A DNA stretch of 64,000 nt from Octopus vulgaris (Eukaryota). Under the pieces are notes generated by a model, which searched no databases, was not told the origin of the DNA, and saw only the letters and a list, made by a program, of their open reading frames with translations. A program made the translations under genes and the position numbers. This document shows, one piece after another, positions 17,939 through 59,789 of this stretch; positions within the stretch are counted from its first letter, which is position 1; every line of letters begins with the position of its first letter. The stretch spans positions 67,518,001 through 67,582,000 of the forward strand of contig OX597818.1 in the NCBI GenBank assembly GCA_951406725.2, given 5' to 3'.

Positions 17939-18320
17939 CAGTTCTATATTTAAATGATGAGGAATTATGTACTTAATTTAGATTATTTACATTTCAAGGA
18001 TATTTGTCCTCATCATGTTTGTTGTTAACACAACGTTTCGGCTGATATAACCTCCATCTTTCATATCGTGTAGTGGTTAAGAGCGTGGTCTACTAACCCC
18101 AAGATTCCGAATTCGATTCCAGGCAATGAACTAAAAAAAAATAATAATGATAACAACAACAACAACATCGAAAATACTTTAGGAATGAGAACCCAGGTTC
18201 GAAATTTCCCCCCAAGAAACCTGATGAAGGCTGGAGGGTATATCAGCCGAAACGTTGTGTTAACAACAGAGAAGACGAGGAAAAATATACGTCACATGTC
18301 AATTATCTAAATAATGTGCA
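17939..18320 (+). mobile_element. Family H SINE-like element (inverted tail + tRNA head + HHR tail), copy 2
   Basis: 17939-18063 is an inverted copy of the tail. The head GTGTAGTGGTTAAGAGCGTGG...TTCGATTCC lies at about 18068-18125. The HHR core CTGATGA-A-GGCTG..CAGCC-GAAA-CG-TT-GTGTT lies at 18216-18261. Confidence 0.85.
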
Positions 18321-19513: not shown

Positions 19514-22204
19514 TATTCCCACGCATATAAATATTATTCTATTTATGGGAGGAGCCCTTGTTTCTCATCTCGCATGATGATTTTTGCTACATATATCTGT
19601 GTGATATATTGTTATAATTCATGGTGGTCATTTTCTACCCCCTCCTCCTTGAACTACATAAAACTGCTTCCCTATGCCACCTGCTGTCTTGAGTCTGCAC
19701 CGTCTCTCACTACACTGCATGCTATAGGCAACATTCCTAATCTTACAGTCAGCCTATGGATTCATCCTACATACTATACAGTTGTTATCCGCAAATGGGG
19801 GCATTTTGAATGGAAATGTTCTACAATGGAGGCCTTTCGAATGAATCTGTTCTACAGATCAGGGATTTTATGGGTGTCCCTGGCCTTTCAACTACTTCAA
19901 TCCATAGAGGTACTTTAAGATTTTCCTAAAGAGGTATGCGAGTTCACTGGATGGGGTAGCATTGACGATCATGTGTACGTCTGTCGTTGTGTGTGTGCAT
20001 GCGTGTTGTGTATACCAATATGCACAAAGATTTCACTGCATGCATGGCTAGGTACTTGTATGTGTGTACAAGAAATGTCCGCTCAGATGTCAGGAACAAC
20101 GATACACTCTCCTTTTAACACTTATTTTCAGCCGACATGTTTTCCCTTCATCCAATATGCAGACATCTTCGCGGAGAGCGAACCTATTAGAAATTACAAT
20201 TCGAGCTCCCCTTGTTTTAGATCCCAGATTTTCTAACCAAAAAGATATTTAGTATTTTCTATGCTGGGTATAAAATATCTAAGTATTACATGATCACCAT
20301 AGTTACATTTATAACAGAAATCTAAACAAGATATCTCCACATTGATTTGGTTTTTCTACCCTAAGTCACAGAGCATATTCTTTCCTTTTTAGTAATATTT
20401 CTAACAACAATCCAGAATCCATAACCGGGAATATGTTGATATAAGACTCAGCTGATATCTAACCAGTATTAATTTAGACAATGGTTTACTTCACTGCATC
20501 GGAGTTCCGTTCAACAGTCTTAAGTGCATACTTGTTATCTTAAGTAGAGAAGTGCCCTCATTATATTTATCCGAATGTTCCTTACCAGAGATACCATTGT
20601 TACATTGTTCCATCACTATAATCAATAGAATATGAAGCAGAATATTGAAATAGTTCTTTGGAGGAAATAGATTTTCCTAAGATTTGAATCTGTTGAAATT
20701 GCGTAAAGCAACGAGAAACACAAAACAACTTTGTCATATTTCAGCAATATTTTGTTATTATAATGAAATACGCATTCTCCATCATGATATCCCACAGATA
20801 TATCATTATAAGAATAAACACGAATATCAAAAGTAAGGATACGCCAAGTTTTCACATAGACATATTTACTTTTCGTAAGAATGAATAGAACCACGCCATA
20901 TTCTTTTGTGCTACATATATATTGTGAGAGTAAAATTTCTTAAACATATGAACACACTAAATAATATCCTTCGTAGCATCAGTAATTGTCCTTCATTTAT
21001 ATACAACTTCATATTACACAGATACTACTTATGTTGGTTCTTTCTCTTTTCGTCAAATTTTCCTTGTTTCCTTGAGATTTCCTACAATCATATTTCAGAA
21101 TCCAAAAGTGTCTTCATTGTTTCCCAATCGTGTTTCTTGCACCGAGGCAATCGAGAAATGAATTAGAAAAGATTCTGCTGCTATTTCTAGTTAATTACTT
21201 GACTAACGAATCGCTGCATCATGAGCATGATTTGGATTGTTATTAATAGTTAATTATAAAAAATATAATTACCATTCTTTAGAGGCAAATCGTATAATGC
21301 TGTGAGAGAAAACCAGAATCTGAAACGTTGTAGATTATTGGAATATTTCGCAGAAACAGAATTAACAACCAAGAGCTGAAGATTATGCTTCGATGGGTTT
21401 CGGAAAATAAAGATAAAGTTGTTATTCAAAGAATGCATATATTGTAGTGGAAGATGTGTTTGTGATAACACAAATGTCTAAAAGACTCAAAGAAGTGGGG
21501 CAAAGATTGCAAGAAATCTTTGTGTTAACGGTCAAATTGATTTAATGCAATCTGAACATGACAGAATTTGCTTGCCGCAAGTAGCACATAAAATGCGATA
21601 TGACTTTATTAAATAAATGCGCAGAACCATTGGGTGGAAATGTCGTTTATAATACTGAAAAATTGTCATAAAATACAACTAAGCATAAATTGAAGTTACA
21701 TTGATTGGTTAGATTCTGTTCGGTATTCACAAAATGGTGGATTAAATGAGTGTATGTTAGTTTAAAAAGCGGTTGTACATCTGCCTCATATGGTACAGTC
21801 CAAACTGTTATGTTTCGTTGAGGTTATATGTCCCAAAAGAAGTCCTACTCGAACACAACGATAATCAGATGTTACCTGTACTTTCAACTGAGTATATTGT
21901 CCAAGGTGAAATACCTGCTTCTACTGACGGCTGCATGTTAATGTTGGAAGGGATTCAACTGCGACTTTAATCCAGTAGCGGTTAACATCGAGACATATAT
22001 TTATATATGCGTATATTCATAAACATTCGCATACAATGTTGTATATATCAATTAAAACTTATTAGCTATCGATCAAAGAACCAAAGCAATTTCGCGCCTT
22101 GAAATGATAATATTGATCCCTTTTCTTGACGCCGGCAGCGAAAAGCAGCCGAGAACTGGCGAGCCAAGGAAGAGGGGACCAAACACGAGAAAGTGAACAT
22201 GAGA

Positions 22205-22355
22205 GGTTGTGTGACAAGAAGCTTACTTCCCAACCACATGGTACTGGCTTCAGTCCCACTGCCTCTCACCTTAGGTATCTGTCTTCTACTATAGTTTCCG
22301 GCCCACCAAAGCCTTGTTAGTGGATTTGGTAGACGGAAACTGAAACAGGTCCATC

Positions 22356-22439
<84 letters not shown>

Positions 22440-22660
22440 ATATATTTGTGTGTGTATGTGCATTTGTGTCTGTGTTTTTCACCCACCATTGCGTGATAAT
22501 AGACGTTGGTATGTTTATGACCCATAACTTAGCAGTTCGGCAAAAGAGGACCAATGGACTAAGTACTAGGTTTACAAAGAATAAGTACTGGGGTAGAATT
22601 CTCGTCTAAAGTTGGTGCTCCAGCATGGCCGCTGTCAAATGACTGAAACAAATAAAAGAG
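22205..22660 (+). mobile_element. SINE family A
   Basis: Head, GGATTTGGTAGACGGAAACTGAAA, internal (TA)n and CCAGCATGGCC tail. Confidence 0.9.
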
Positions 22661-22695
22661 CAAACAACAAATAATTAAATTTAATTAATTAATTA

Positions 22696-23600
22696 ATTAA
22701 TTAATATGCAATACAGAAAAGGAATATACAAACATGAAACAAATGCGCAATAAACAATATATGAACGAAAATGTATTCAAGAGGCGATCATGAGTGGACC
22801 CCTTTTAGGGATTGTTTACAGTGTCTTTATATTTTCGTACATCTGTTTCTATCGTTTCTCCTCCTTTTTCTCCCTATCACCTCTCTTTTACCACTTCCCT
22901 CTCAACACTTCTCTGCTGTTGTCTTTCTTTTACTTTCTATTTCCCTTTTACTCTCTACTGTCCGGGGATCTCTCTCTGAACCCTACAGTTTTTCTCCTTC
23001 CTACAACAGGCACGAGACCCGTGATCAGCGTCATCACTTATTCTCTTTTCCTTTTCACGCCGAAGCAACTGGTCACTTTTCACCTCCAGCTTTCAACACG
23101 TTTTGCTGTCCATCTGTTGTCATGTTTGTAATCCTGTAGGATATTCTTCCTGGCGCTAACCAAAAAGCATTTCATGTCTGGTCCTAAAGACCCATTCTTT
23201 TTATTTATTTCATTTTGTACACATCTCTCTTGTTTGTTTTCATCATTTTCCCTCATCCTTCCACTCATGGTCTCGTCGTCTTAAATATTTTTTCTTTCGT
23301 ATATTTTATATTGCACATTTATTTCATGTTTCTATCTTCACTTGCATAATTGTTCATTTTGTCATGTTTGATCCCTTGTTAGTTGGCTTGCTATTTCCCG
23401 TTGACTGATCTTTGGCGACGCCACCAAAGACGAGCAGTATCATCGTTTGAAGGTGCAATATTCCACTGATCGTTTGGTCGATAACTGATGAGGATTTGCT
23501 GATCTTCTATGACTGATTTCCATCTCGTTTGCGTTTTGCGTTTGTTTTTTAACTTATTATTTGATGGAACACAACGGACTGTCTCTTATTTTGTCCACAG
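22696..23600 (+). mobile_element. PLE-like non-coding repeat with degenerate inverted segment, related to 54350-54965
   Basis: 22696-22798 is an imperfect inverted copy of 23260-23352. It shares a CT-rich tract, CACG.GACC, CGCCGAAGCAAC and TTGGCG..CCAAA..GAGCA..CTGATGA with the 54.4-54.9 kb repeat. Confidence 0.55.
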
Positions 23601-24719
23601 TAAGGGTTTATATATATGTGTGTGGGGGGTGCGTGCGTGTGTGTGAATGTATGCATGTGTGTATGTATTTATAATTATACCCCACACACAAACAGATATA
23701 TACATATATATATATATATATGGCGAAACTGCAGTCTAAGAAGAACCGAGTTAGTAAAAGTTTTTATTTTCATTTCACTAAATTTATCAAGCTTCTGTGT
23801 ATCTAGTACATACTTCGCCTTTAATGTACTTATATATGAATAATATATGGCCTGTGCTAGAAACACCAGCGATAATAATTAATTTTATTTTATCGCATTC
23901 TGACTTTGTTTATATATATATATAAAGAGAGAGACAGTGAGGAAGAGAATGAGCCATCCAGAGTCCCTTTCAGTAATTCTTGCAATGGCGGCAATTGCAA
24001 CGAGGTACGTCTTAAATCGTATCGGTCTGAGACATTTCAATTTTAAATTTTAGCGGAAATAAGATGCTCTAAATACTCGTGTTTCTCTCTTTCTGATTTT
24101 ACGCATTGCAAATATCCTAAATATTGATATTACACTGGAAAATAATCGTTTTACAGACTAATATTTCCTTGAGAAAATAAATACCAATATGCATACAAAC
24201 ATACACACTTAGATTCATCTAATCCATTTCAACAGAAATTCCATCAAACGAATTTCTTTTAGAAGATGGCCCATTGATAGATAAGTAGTTCTGTCTCATG
24301 TTTAGCCCCTTGTGAGCAATAAAGAAATAAGTATTGTCATAGAAGCATTCAAAGATTGTTAATGTCCTGCATTTCCTTCTAAATATACTAATCTGAATAA
24401 TGATAAATTCAGCACACCTCCAAAGGCAGATATATTATATAAAGATAAAGAGATAGTACCCTAAATTGGCCTCTCGGTGACTGGTTAAGTCGAGTACATT
24501 GGTCACAATGTTCAACTGGTACTTATTTTATCGATACCGAAACGAAAAAGGCAGTTTTGTCATCGGCAGAATTTTAACAAATAACGAACGAAATGTCGCT
24601 AAGCGCTTTGCATATGGATTCTGCCGGCGCGCCCTCTTATTTGTACTTCATATATTACAAGAACTTTTCTCCGACTTTCAAACAATTCTCCAAACTCCAC
24701 ACACACAAACACACACACG

Positions 24720-26256: not shown

Positions 26257-26427
26257 AAAAAAGTGAAGATAGAAACTGCTAAAATAATTGGAAAGATTAA
26301 ATGAAAAGTTTTTCTTTTAAAATAATATTTGGATAGTTTTCAACTAGTATTTCTGCCTGTCTCTCATCCTCTCTTGTTTACTCTTGTGGGTTCGACGTCG
26401 TTGTGTGCATGTGTGTATATATAGTCT

Positions 26428-26637
26428 CTCTTTACTCTTTTACTTGTTTCAGTCATTTTGACTGAAGCCATGCTGGAGCACCGCCTTTAGTCGAGCAAAT
26501 TGACCTCGGGACTTATTCTTTGTAAGCCCAGTACTTATTCTATCGTTCTCTATTGCCGAACCGCTAAGTGATGGGGACGTAAACACACCAGCATCGGTTG
26601 TCAAGCAATGCTAGGGGGACAAACACAGACACACAAA

Positions 26638-26721
<84 letters not shown>

Positions 26722-26896
26722 GTATATACATACGACAGGCTTCTTTCAGTTTCCGTCTACCAAATCCACTCACAAGGCATTGGTCGGCCCGGGGCCATAG
26801 CGGAAGACACCTGCCGAAGATGCCACGCAGTGGGACTGAACCCGGAACCATGTGGTTGGTTAGCAAGCTACTTACCACACAGTCACTCCTGCGCCT
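26428..26896 (-). mobile_element. SINE family A, near full length
   Basis: Minus-strand head AGGCGCAGGAGTGACTGTGTGGTAAG (A-box-like) with GGTTCAGTCCC (B-box-like), internal (TA)n and GAGTAAAA tail. Confidence 0.92.
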
Positions 26897-27560
26897 ATAT
26901 GTATATACGGAAAGAAATAATATGAAAGACACAATATTTGTTTTAAAAGACTAAAGAATATATTAGAATCAAAATAGAAAATAGGATTTTTTTACTCCTA
27001 ACATTAAGAACGGGTTCGTTATCGTTTTCAAATTATGAGTTTTGCGTAAATTTCTGTATTAGACATTTTGTTTGCTAGGGGAGGATATTGGTAACAAACT
27101 AATTTTACAGTAAAGGGGAAGTAAATCTGTAATTTATTATATTGGTCTACATTTTATTTTTACCATAGTTGGGGTAAATCTATTTTGTGGAGGTTATCTC
27201 TTGTCTGTTGGCCGGACAACTCCGTCGAGTTTAGTTCAGATTTAAACACCTTATGTACGACGCTAAATAAACCGGACAATAACCGACCCACACAAAATGA
27301 AGCGCAGCACTACGACGCACTATCAACTGTGAATTTAATTAAAAGGAGAATAGATAACATCTGGAACACAAATCTTCGTATCAGCAATATGATTAAAAAT
27401 TTCACCAAAGTAGAAATTTATGAATGTTGAATAAACGCAACATCGATGATTCTTCAAAGCAAATTTCTTAAATCAGAAATTGAACTAATAAAATTAAGAG
27501 ATTCAAACTATGAAGAAAAATACCAAAACATCGACGCAGAGTTGCAAAGGGAACTTTGTG

Positions 27561-53926: not shown

Positions 53927-54348
53927 ACCAATTCAGGACTGAGCACGAAAAGGTGGTCAGTCAACATGCTAGATATAGACGTCAAATCGCCATTCTCCAC
54001 AAAGATTTTGTTCTCAAATAAAAATAAAATTCAGCACGACCTAAAGCAATGGATAACACAAAAGAAATATACGAAATGGAATAATCACCTACGTACCGAG
54101 CGGTTTCAGCTATTAATATCACAAGGATATCTGTAGCTTCGTCAGCGTAGTTTGTTATGAGCATAATATGCTGTACTAGATGAAAAACGGTACCGGAGTC
54201 TCGTATATTTCTTTTGTCTTATCCATTGCTTTAGGTCGTGCTGAATTTTATTTTTATTTGAGAACAAAATCTTTGTGGAGAATGGCGATTTGACGTCTAT
54301 ATCTAGCATGTTGACTGACCACCTTTTCGTGCTCAGTCCTTAATTGGT
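53927..54348 (-). mobile_element. PLE pLTR-like foldback: 148-bp inverted arms enclosing an HHR
   Basis: 53927-54074 and 54201-54348 are near-perfect reverse complements. Confidence 0.9.
54089..54150 (-). ncRNA. Type I hammerhead ribozyme, intact consensus
   Basis: Minus strand: CTACG-CTGACGA-AGCTA..TAGCT-GAAA-CCG-CT-CGG-TA-CGTAG. All three stems pair and the site is GUA. Confidence 0.9.
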
Positions 54349-54349
54349 C

Positions 54350-54965
54350 CCCCCCCCTCTACGTTTCTCTATCTCTCTCACCTCCAGTCCCCTCGATCTG
54401 TCTCTTTCTTCTCCTCCCTCGTCCACCTTCTCTCTCTTTTCATCTGTCCCTTTCTCCTTTCTTTAGTTCTCACGTGACCGCTAGCCACTGTTGAGCGCTC
54501 TTTTCGTTCCAGCAGTCGCCGAAGCAACACGTATTTGTTCGTCTCCCTGCGGCCATTAGGCACAACTTCATAAGCCAGCCCTAAACTCAACTCGTCCTGT
54601 CGAAAGACCCTTGTCCTACGTCCTGGTTTTGTTTTGTTTTTTTATTTTTACCGTTATTGTTTTTACGTTTTTGTATTCTTATTGGTGTCACGTATTCTGT
54701 ATTTTTGTTCGTGTACTTCGTTCGTTTTCCGTCCTCGTGTTGTATACATTCGAAGCTTTCTTCCAGGGGATCTAATGCGCTTGGCTTAGATTTCCCTTGG
54801 CGGGCTGCCCAAATCGGAGCAATCTCAAGATTAATCAGCCGAAATTGCTAAGATGATCTGGTTCTTGACTGATGACTGAGGGCTTCGAATGTCCCGTCCT
54901 GTGGTTCTTGTGTCGTCTCTGTGGTGTTTCATGTTCTTGTCCATGTCTGTAATTATTTTTACTGT
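54350..54965 (+). mobile_element. PLE-like non-coding repeat related to 22800-23600, carrying permuted HHR strands
   Basis: Shares CGCCGAAGCAAC and other motifs with the 23 kb repeat. A CATTCGAAGC/GCTTCGAATG stem encloses a structured region. Confidence 0.55.
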
Positions 54966-54968
54966 TTA

Positions 54969-55051
<83 letters not shown>

Positions 55052-55062
55052 ATATGTGCCTA

Positions 55063-55212
55063 TGTGTGGTAAGAAGGATGCATCCCAACCACGTGTTTCC
55101 GGGATCAGTCCTACTGGCTGGCACCTTGGATAACTGTCTTCTGCTATAACCTTAGGCTGGCCGAAGCCTTGAGAGTGGAATTGATGGACGGTAACAGAAA
55201 GTAGACAATCGT
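55063..55212 (+). mobile_element. SINE family A 5' fragment (3' fragment at ~56030-56200)
   Basis: TGTGTGGTAAGAAG head and GGCCGAAGCCTTG. The tail motifs AAGTACTAGGCTTACAA and CAGTCAAATGACTGAAACAAG lie downstream. Confidence 0.7.
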
Positions 55213-55519
55213 GTAAATATACACGTATATAAAGTTAATCCAAACATGAAAACACAATGAGAAAACACAACAACGCGAAGACGTGGAGCAAGTACAGTGT
55301 TATTGGACGCCCTGGAAATGAAAGATCCAAGGAAGGGAAGAGGGAGGAGAAAAATTGCCAACAATACACAGGCGGTCACCCCCCCACACACACACACACA
55401 CGCACATATATATATATATATATCAAGTAATATTCTAGTAGCTCTGCGTCGGCAAGAATTGAAAACATATGGAAAAAAGTGAAAGAGATACAGTGAAGTT
55501 GCCCCGTGAGGAATGGAAT

Positions 55520-55554
55520 ATCCAATGTTTCGGATTCAATCCTTCGTCAGGGGC
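55520..55554 (-). ncRNA. Degenerate minimal hammerhead motif
   Basis: Minus strand: GCCC-CTGACGA-A-GGAT-TGA-ATCC-GAAA-CA-TT-GGAT. The stem III CG has become CA and stem I has a mismatch. Confidence 0.5.
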
Positions 55555-56203
55555 CAGAGAAAAAGTGAAGAAAAGGAGAAAAAATCAAACAGAGTTTACA
55601 TCGTTGCAACTGATAATGAACGTAGAATAACACGGCCTGCTAAGGTGAACCAGAAGTTATAGGAGAGGGCGTGAAGCAAGGAGAAGGAAAAGGGTGATGG
55701 AGAGACCAGAGGTAATTAAATACGGGATAGCTGCACAGAGAGCTTTGGAGGGGGATTAAAAAGGGTAAAAAATAATCAAGAGGAGGTGAAAAACGTCCAT
55801 TCATACCTGTTGCGGACATAGTGCCAAGATCAAATATCAGACGTTGCTCCTTTCCTTGCTTTTTTCGTTGCTCCTTTCGTTTCGTAAAGAAGAGAGATCC
55901 GTGATGCAAGGCCAAATCTGCTATAGATTGATTCACAGTGTTGAAGTGGGTGACCACAGGTTGGCCTGGCATACGAAACATTATGCTTCTGATATATTCG
56001 CCAAAACGATTCCCTCCCTAGTCGTTTCAGTTTGTACGTCTGTGTTTTTCCGCCTACCAACTTTTGACAACCGACAAACTAAGCGGTTCGGCAAAAGATA
56101 TCGGTAGACTAAGTACTAGGCTTACAAGTATTAAGTTCTTCGCCTAAAGACAGTGCTACAACATGTCCGCAGTCAAATGACTGAAACAAGTAAAAGAATA
56201 TAA

Positions 56204-59146: not shown

Positions 59147-59195
<49 letters not shown>

Positions 59196-59196
59196 T

Positions 59197-59590
59197 GTTT
59201 GTGTGGTAAGTAGCTTGTTTACCAACCACATGGTTCCGCGTTCAGTCCCACTGCGTGGCATCTTGGGTAAGTGTCTTCTACTGTAGCCTCGGGCCGACCA
59301 AAACCTTGTGAGTGGATTTGGTAGACGGAAACTGAAAGAAGCCCGTCGTGTATATGTATATATATGTATGTGCGTGTATGTTTGCGTGTCTGTGTTTGTC
59401 CCCCTATCATTGCTTGACAACCGATGCTATTGTGTTTACGTCGCCGTCACTTAGCGTTTCCGCAAAAGAAACCGATAGAATAAGAACTGGGCTTACAAAG
59501 AATAAGTCCCGGGGTCGAGTTGCTCGATTAAAGGCGGTGCTCCAGCATGGCCGCAGTCAAATGACTGAAACAAGTAAACGAGTAAAAGAG
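59197..59590 (+). mobile_element. SINE family A
   Basis: Full set of family A motifs. Confidence 0.92.
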
Positions 59591-59789
59591 AATATACACA
59601 CACGCATGCGCGCGCGCACACACACATATCTATATATATATATATATATTACGGAGATGTACTTGCATAGCAAGTGACTTAATTTCAGATCGTGCGCTGG
59701 AACGAAAACAATTGCAGCGTGGAAGGTGTTTATAAGCGATTTAATAAACACAGAAAAACCGTTCGATTCACTTCAACATTTAAATTTAA

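Follow-up and report, generated by a model that had tools for sequence, protein, structure and literature searches.

The window analyzed here, a stretch of 64,000 nucleotides from the Octopus vulgaris genome, contains at 23430–23499 a hammerhead-like motif with its conserved blocks in reversed order. The question is what this motif is, how its strands pair, and whether its RNA would cut itself. A preliminary description had quoted the letters of the segment correctly, and had rightly seen in it a second, divergent copy of a motif also present at 54.8 kb. The preferred reading, with a probability of about 0.8, takes the segment for a mutated copy, likely inactive, of a predicted hammerhead ribozyme, located close to the 3′ end of a non-coding repeat, itself likely derived from Naiad retroelements. 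The copy matters only as a divergent witness for covariation, helping to fix the wiring of its family; judging by sequence comparison, this wiring may be that of the missing ribozyme of Naiads.

Repeat family and block order

The motif copy (23385–23504) lies in a decayed repeat of ~800 bp, a non-coding Penelope-like element of Naiad type assigned to subfamily A (22815–23615, forward strand, delimited by profile), which ends on a TA/TG microsatellite. A profile built from 16 other subfamily A copies matches 22815–23668, microsatellite tail included, with E 5e-109; identity to the best other copies is 69–76% (over 200 bases), and this repeat copy holds no open frame longer than 125 aa. An inverted fragment at the 5′ end of the repeat (22722–22798, reverse strand) is a copy of 23260–23339 (blastn, 79% over 80 nt, E 6e-13). 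Over the 140-nt core, 24% of positions differ from the subfamily A majority, vs. 17% for the median copy. A contig guessed to derive from RNA covers 22846–23136, with no such contig over the motif. The host genome is rich in (TA)n, and one abundant dispersed repeat family, present on both strands, occupies 22198–22700, 26427–26907, 59174–59592, and other places.

The reversed (S-G-C) block order, noticed already in the preliminary description, is found genome-wide: the pattern CAATH-N12-22-CGAAATTG-N14-30-CTGAYGA has 1,095 matches in the genome vs. none for the reversed control, and a looser S-G-C pattern has 381 vs. 43. The layout in subfamily A is CAAT-H, a 6-nt stem I strand, ~10 nt, GAAA-TTG, ~16 nt, the stem I partner, and CTGATGA. 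A four-strand descriptor allowing at most two changes in GAAA, and designed after the family was known, finds in the window only this copy and the 54.8-kb site, with a background of 0.09 matches per shuffled window (200 shuffles).

Six subfamilies were compared (A, 30 copies; C, 25; H, 25; E, 30; D, 48; B, 12, all of the latter being pattern matches). The GAAA box is kept in 26/30 copies of E, 18/25 of C, and 21/25 of H; position N7 varies (T, C, A, G), as in hammerheads. Subfamily F (L061, L121–L130), a fragment without the upstream strands, and the single copy L131 (“G”) stand outside these counts; subfamily “J” (L139, L140), the palindromic end of a different element, was left aside. Subfamily F is a young repeat with a near-identical motif fragment that starts at the cleavage block.

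The 54.8-kb site belongs to the young subfamily D, whose copies share one common 3′ end on (TA)n, have many 5′ truncation points, and frequently form tandem units of ~770 bp. The copy in the window (54349–54965, forward strand) is 5′-truncated, ends on (TA)n, and contains an intact six-helix motif (54746–54892, forward strand) with the predicted cut between 54824 and 54825. The CUGANGA, GAAA, and UH elements are all intact in 48/48 subfamily D copies, 18 of which came from a pattern requiring the boxes. This site had been described as lesioned, in a way that complements the damage of the window copy; the 40 best of 2,622 candidates are, however, ~100% identical to it over 221 bases. Being the standard form of a young family, it leaves nothing to complement, and the two window copies have no complementary lesions, as the 54.8-kb copy is undamaged. 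Contigs of guessed RNA origin cover the young family, one of them starting at 54825; contigs of this kind cannot show ends or level.

The homology proposed between the window repeat and 54350–54965 stands for the motif and the 3′ end, and is not shown for the rest of the repeat. Pairwise alignment of the two repeats gives a score of 55, not above shuffles (mean 41.6, maximum 65), and the subfamily A profile matches 54839–55008 (E 1.2e-5), partly via the TA tail.

Helices of the predicted fold

Stem I is seen in compensatory versions across the subfamilies: TTATCG/CGATAA, TCAACG/CGTTGA, TCAAGA/TCTTGA, and TCGAGT/ACTCGA. The partner of stem II lies upstream: a 5-mer ending 12–13 nt before CAAT forms 28/30 Watson–Crick pairs over the six subfamily majorities, vs. 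16/30 for the best other of 75 scanned offsets (45 upstream, 30 downstream); none of the downstream offsets 0–29 exceeds 16/30. Stem II, too, has several versions (GCGCC/GGCGC, GACAC/GTGTC, and GGCTG/CAGCC), and cross-family swaps between the A/B/C, H, and D/E groups give only 0–3/5 pairs. It begins with G10.1–C11.1 in C, H, D, and E; an A–C mismatch or bulge at 10.1 occurs in 12/30 subfamily A copies, the window copy included, and in most of B. A further helix, P4, stands at a distance of one base from each of stems I and II, and is 94% paired in 37 copies.

These 37 copies, aligned automatically, were chosen from ~170 for a recognisable core (the window copy excepted), a choice that raises the apparent core conservation and leaves covariation unaffected. 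The four-helix model (stems I–III and P4) pairs 84.7% of 731 cells, vs. 23–47% for slid controls; two-sided changes number 129 vs. 55 in shuffled alignments, and covariation is 0.396 vs. 0.186, although the copies are related and the shuffle count cannot be read as a probability. The automatic alignment pairs only 68% of stem II, because H and B are one column off and CpG decay has affected old copies; independent evidence for it consists of about three variants in six related subfamilies, plus the Naiad tails.

Co-folding, in the subfamily majorities, of the bases preceding stem II with those following CUGANGA yields, in six out of six, a hairpin (P6) that ends 0–2 nt before G10.1 and, likewise in all six, a helix (P5) that starts 0–2 nt after A9. 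The P5 duplex beats shuffles in A, C, D, and E (1–10 of 300 shuffles), and is not above them in B (44 of 300) or H (218 of 300). Single-strand folding, in a model without pseudoknots, gives stabilities that are not unusual (z −0.7 to +1.3).

The strand order of the predicted fold, as shown by covariation, runs P5a, P6, stem II 5′ strand, P4a, stem III, UH, stem I, a linker of 4–5 nt, stem II 3′ strand, GAAA, stem III, P4b, the stem I partner, CUGANGA, and P5b. By this order, the backbone would enter and leave the core between A9 and G10.1. The family as a whole conserves CUGANGA, GAAA, and UH and has covarying stems I–III with G10.1–C11.1, stem II through its upstream partner only. The predicted fold would work like a hammerhead, yet is not type SGC as defined.

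The strands of the window copy all lie on the forward strand. The decayed 5′ strand of P5 (23385–23398, placed by homology to subfamily A) has its partner in the strand after A9, and is followed by the likewise decayed P6 hairpin (23399–23417; 6/7 pairs, by eye), directly before G10.1. The 5′ strand of stem II (23418–23422) stands upstream of the cleavage block and forms 4/5 pairs with 23452–23456; the 5′ strand of P4 (23424–23428) forms 5/5 pairs with 23473–23477. The cleavage block (23434–23445) consists of a stem III strand, U16.1 (23438), A17 (23439), and a stem I strand (23440–23445); the UA site is present, and the predicted cut falls between 23439 and 23440. Next comes the GAAA block (23452–23464), with the stem II 3′ strand (23452–23456), the box, here AATA (23457–23460), and the second stem III strand. 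The last block (23473–23491) holds the P4 3′ strand (23473–23477), the stem I partner (23479–23484), and an intact CUGAUGA (23485–23491, CTGATGA in the DNA); the 3′ strand of P5 (23492–23504), which pairs upstream in the subfamily majority, closes the motif.

The cleavage site and stem I (5/6 pairs) agree with the preliminary drawing. Stem II has 4/5 pairs, with 10.1–11.1 mismatched or bulged, and stem III has 4/5, so that stems I and III both carry mismatches; the P5 duplex of this copy is not above shuffles (162/300). The GAAA box had been called defective through loss of GAA. Defective it is, but the three letters are not missing: GAAA is substituted to AATA, at G12 and A14, with no deletion. 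In the corresponding alignment column, a by-eye count of the 29 other subfamily A copies gives GAAA in 18, AAAA, which is the CpG-decay form, in 6, and other letters in 5. (GAAA stands at 17/30 in the counts whose L005 row is its second, truncated copy, and at 18 in the by-eye count.) The check proposed earlier, whether GAAA is present in the subfamily, is thus answered in the affirmative, 5 nt upstream of the place considered at the time; GAAA at that place is found in no copy. In an orthologous contig (run X15), which has 21 substitutions in 868 bases (2.4%), the AATA box is identical, and further changes lie at 23414, 23419, and 23430, stems included. With G12 and A14 changed, the 10.1–11.1 pair broken, and P5 decayed, the window copy would not cut; it is very probably inactive and behaves as a neutral relic.

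The preliminary description had proposed a different model, an ordinary three-block type-SGC hammerhead with GGA/UCC as stem II and a deletion of GAA that complements a lesion at 54.8 kb. Such a fold can indeed be drawn in the window copy, with 8/9 pairs in stem III, counting the A–U pair next to the core, and 3/3 in stem II. Both stems are, however, off the homologous register: in 27 subfamily A copies (L005, L020, and L025, truncated or deleted, being left out), stem III reaches 8/9 in two only and stem II reaches 3/3 in three, and the UCC strand belongs to stem III in the homologous register. The shifted stem III averages ~5.6/9 pairs in the subfamily, and an alternative fold may exist there. 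A G follows CUGAUGA in 26/30 subfamily A copies, as this model would have it; this G is nevertheless part of P5, as is the GGA, which lies in its 3′ strand, and is absent in D and E. The classic stem II after CUGANGA, tried over 185 cells, is 36% paired, and 493/500 shuffles are as high. The apparent compensatory change next to the core (A–U vs. G–C) is an artefact of the wrong register, A15.1–U16.1 being invariant in 37/37 copies. Together with the absence of a deletion from the alignment and the 54.8-kb form being the family standard, this makes the three-block model very improbable.

Naiad tails and known hammerhead types

In the available parts of Craig et al. (2021; PMC8557442), Naiads are described as targeting (TA)n, and no canonical hammerhead is reported for them, only “HHR_core” and “HHR_half_core” labels; Naiad_Ovul is labelled “half_core”. 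Seven of the consensus tails in the supplement (Naiad_Obim; Naiad_Ovul; the Acropora entries Amil, Aacu, and Anas, named by position; and two further entries) share, as read by eye, the strand order of the family, including stems I, II, III, and P4. Their stem sequences differ from those of this genome, the wiring being the same. Outside octopus, all five tails have a clear P5 and P6; the two octopus tails have P6 and only a short P5, and share stem II and the linkers with subfamily H, while stems I, III, and P4 differ. In one more entry, stems II, III, and P4 are present and stem I is not clear. Two nematode tails (Naiad-3_Nbra and one other entry) read as intact type-CSG hammerheads with P4. 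The tails were found via CTGATGA only, at places 1–60 of 62, so that other N7 variants and line-broken boxes were missed; seven plus two of 54 Naiad entries is therefore a lower bound. From corals to octopus, the catalytic positions CUGANGA, GAAA, UH, and G10.1–C11.1 are kept in these tails and every stem changes.

A repeat in which short motifs fell into place by chance, and which copying then multiplied, could also yield a high count, one founder having been copied often, and an Rfam match is absent: the covariance models give no hammerhead up to E 10 at 23380–23540 or 54060–55620, and the best 150 of 308 matches of the Rfam scan, all below the gathering score, include no hammerhead. This explanation is nonetheless refuted by compensatory changes in stems I, II, III, P4, and P5 across subfamilies and phyla, and we give it next to no weight. 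Chance does account for the matches of a metagenome scan: among at least 117 stretches, five have a stem I of at least 5 pairs, and none has a full upstream stem II.

The family has Naiad-like anatomy, with a (TA)n target, a fixed 3′ end, variable 5′ truncation, and tandem and inverted copies. In target, truncation, and tandem and inverted copies, it resembles the Naiads of Craig et al. (2021; PMC8557442), as far as the accessible parts describe them, and unlike them its copies have no reading frame. Among the loci examined, subfamily A is nowhere physically joined to a Naiad reading frame, of the kind that has GIY-YIG at the N terminus and RT at the C terminus, and the link is the shared tail motif. 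Neptune- or Poseidon-like frames near the motif are separate insertions or of uncertain relation. Fragments of a Poseidon-like reverse transcriptase–endonuclease (L007:469–1479, reverse strand; L257) directly follow copies of subfamilies A and C, sharing the (TA)n target. A very young autonomous Penelope-like element (L162–L191, G000:C15:67324459, and others; 150 near-identical matches of 21,222 candidates) has frames of up to 811 aa with a reverse transcriptase, a Zn-knuckle linker, and, at the C terminus, GIY-YIG; by these features we take it to be Neptune-like. No CUGANGA box is seen in its 3′ tail. The example adjoining L131, whose tail is without such a motif, was set aside as unrelated.

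The hammerhead types closest in wiring are those of Eckert et al. (2023; PMC10085705), cited here for the portions of the text available. Type SGC (HRIMA-1 and its variants) shares with our family the order S-G-C, a short linker between stems I and II, and an extra helix at the far ends of these stems, whose equivalence to P4 is deduced from the text. Both pose the puzzle that the extra helix is closely linked with stem III at its far end; Eckert et al. note this geometric difficulty for some type-SGC RNAs that nevertheless cut. In type SGC, however, stem II comes immediately after CUGANGA, and block C is assumed to be unbreakable, whereas here the stem II strand is upstream and P5 and P6 lie between A9 and G10.1. 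Type CSG, with two sequences from metagenomes in that paper, has the same cyclic strand order and the same P4 helix; there, block C is whole and the chain is opened between stem III and P4, while here it is opened inside block C. Since the core is opened at A9/G10.1 and block C is taken as uninterruptible, the family is not one of the six types set out in those portions. Type SGC comes only from metatranscriptomes there, and non-circularly permuted hammerheads generally had metatranscriptomes and metagenomes as their only sources, block C being treated as indivisible; here the setting is an animal genome and retroelement tails.

The minimal type I hammerheads that Penelope-like elements carry (Cervera and de la Pena, 2014; PMC4209133) are, in the available text, similar in their place near the 3′ end or pLTR, in the many subfamilies per genome, in G10.1–C11.1, in a tolerated insertion at 9/10.1, in a proposed dimeric action, and in the processing of tandem transcripts. 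They differ in the circular order C-G-S, in a minimal palindromic stem III, and in an insertion of one base; here the order is reversed, stem III has 4–5 bp or more, and the insertion consists of two helices at the chain ends. Non-LTR retrozymes (Li et al., 2026; 10.64898/2026.07.22.740005) likewise consist of non-coding tandem units, comparable with the ~770-bp units of subfamily D. According to the accessible part of that report, each unit has one hammerhead and retrozymes are regarded as non-autonomous Penelope-like derivatives; they are defined by a type I hammerhead, unlike the family here.

The open-access literature (PMC, bioRxiv) yielded no description of a hammerhead with an upstream stem II strand, and none of permuted hammerheads in Naiads or any animal; the term “type-SGC” was met only in Eckert et al. 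If the reading is true, the core-opened form, of which an animal genome holds more than a thousand copies and which recurs in Naiad tails from coral to octopus, would be a new wiring of the hammerhead, the most thoroughly studied small ribozyme. It would also clear up why Naiads were reported to lack hammerheads, and would tie cleavage to where retroelement copies begin.

Copy ends and predicted cleavage

Cutting of transcripts after UH would be expected to leave some copies beginning at that point. Genome-wide, copy ends were compared at the site, one base upstream, and two bases downstream. The 3′ part of the young family, from the first base after the site and without C17, has 305 matches. 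Of 42 inspected, 31 are true breaks beyond which the sequence is foreign and mostly (TA)n, 10 are substitutions, and one is an internal deletion, so that an estimated ~225 copies start at the site. One base upstream there are 54 matches with 4/20 breaks, an underestimate, since flanks that end in T escape notice. Two bases downstream, the count is 244 matches with 15/25 breaks, or ~146 copies; the end peak in older classes is therefore broad, not sharp. The copy junction is blurred, since copy and (TA)n target have a T in common.

In the youngest class (contig C1 up to 215.6 Mb), 5 breaks fall at the site, next to ~76 longer copies, and none two bases downstream (10 contig-C1 loci). The upstream background of ends is 0.13–0.43% per base over 700 bases, an upper bound in which alignment breaks are counted too; the site thus exceeds it about tenfold (binomial p 8e-5 to 7e-4). 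At T-rich sites upstream that offer the same microhomology, the rate of breaks is only ~0.3% per base.

These ends might have another origin, if a fold derived from hammerheads no longer cuts and serves as a structural handle, e.g., for the Naiad reverse transcriptase, the ends piling up through stalling of the transcriptase or (TA)n microhomology. The broad peak of copy ends would fit, as would the strained geometry, and forms with a split block C are absent from those tested in the available text of PMC10085705. Against a mere handle stand the catalytic positions, all kept from corals to octopus while the stems all change, and N7, which varies in a hammerhead-like way; in the youngest class, moreover, breaks occur at the site (5) but are absent two bases downstream (0), and microhomologous T-rich sites upstream break at the low rate given above. 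We consider this explanation unlikely, though it is the strongest of the competitors.

Under the preferred reading, that of a cutting hammerhead, P5 and P6 would hold A9 and G10.1 together, bridging the opening of the core, and the RNA would be cut after UH by hammerhead chemistry, ~140–175 nt before the 3′ end of the element. Cutting would give new 5′ ends, sometimes reverse-transcribed and inserted at (TA)n, as the copy ends suggest; tandem transcripts would be processed to units, which the Naiad reverse transcriptase/endonuclease may copy into (TA)n. Hammerhead geometry directs stem III away from where stems I and II have their far ends. P4 and stem III together make up one nested rod with a short internal loop; its ends are due at opposite faces of the core, which it cannot easily reach in a single copy, and this makes action by two copies likelier; the difficulty is greatest in the Acropora tails as given in the supplement, where stem III has 13 bp. 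From such geometry, the active form would somewhat more readily join two copies head-to-tail, as tandem units or two transcripts, than fold alone.

More broadly, the balance of evidence tilts toward Naiads and their non-coding derivatives carrying an active hammerhead class that goes beyond the six block permutations, with reversed order, a core opened at A9–G10.1, two closing helices, and action as a head-to-tail pair, with intact CSG forms in nematode Naiads. If true, this would explain why Naiads seemed to be without ribozymes, and a natural series would link the permutations.

Other hammerhead-like sequences are seen in the same genome. A large inverted repeat (53927–54348; 148-nt arms, 99%) lies directly before the young copy; it contains, on the reverse strand at ~54145, a hammerhead-like core in the order C then G, probably a separate Penelope-like end, and its Rfam match to MIR8562 does not reach the gathering score. 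Short palindromic elements on (TA)n (L192–L221) have a hammerhead-like box in their centre. The classical C-G-S order CUGANGA...GAAA occurs in the window at 18221 and 47302 (forward strand) and at 173 and 55550 (reverse strand); none of the four was found by a strict descriptor scan of the window, and by eye they are degenerate minimal type I hammerheads of other repeats. The stem II letters of the 18221 site are identical to those of subfamilies D and E.
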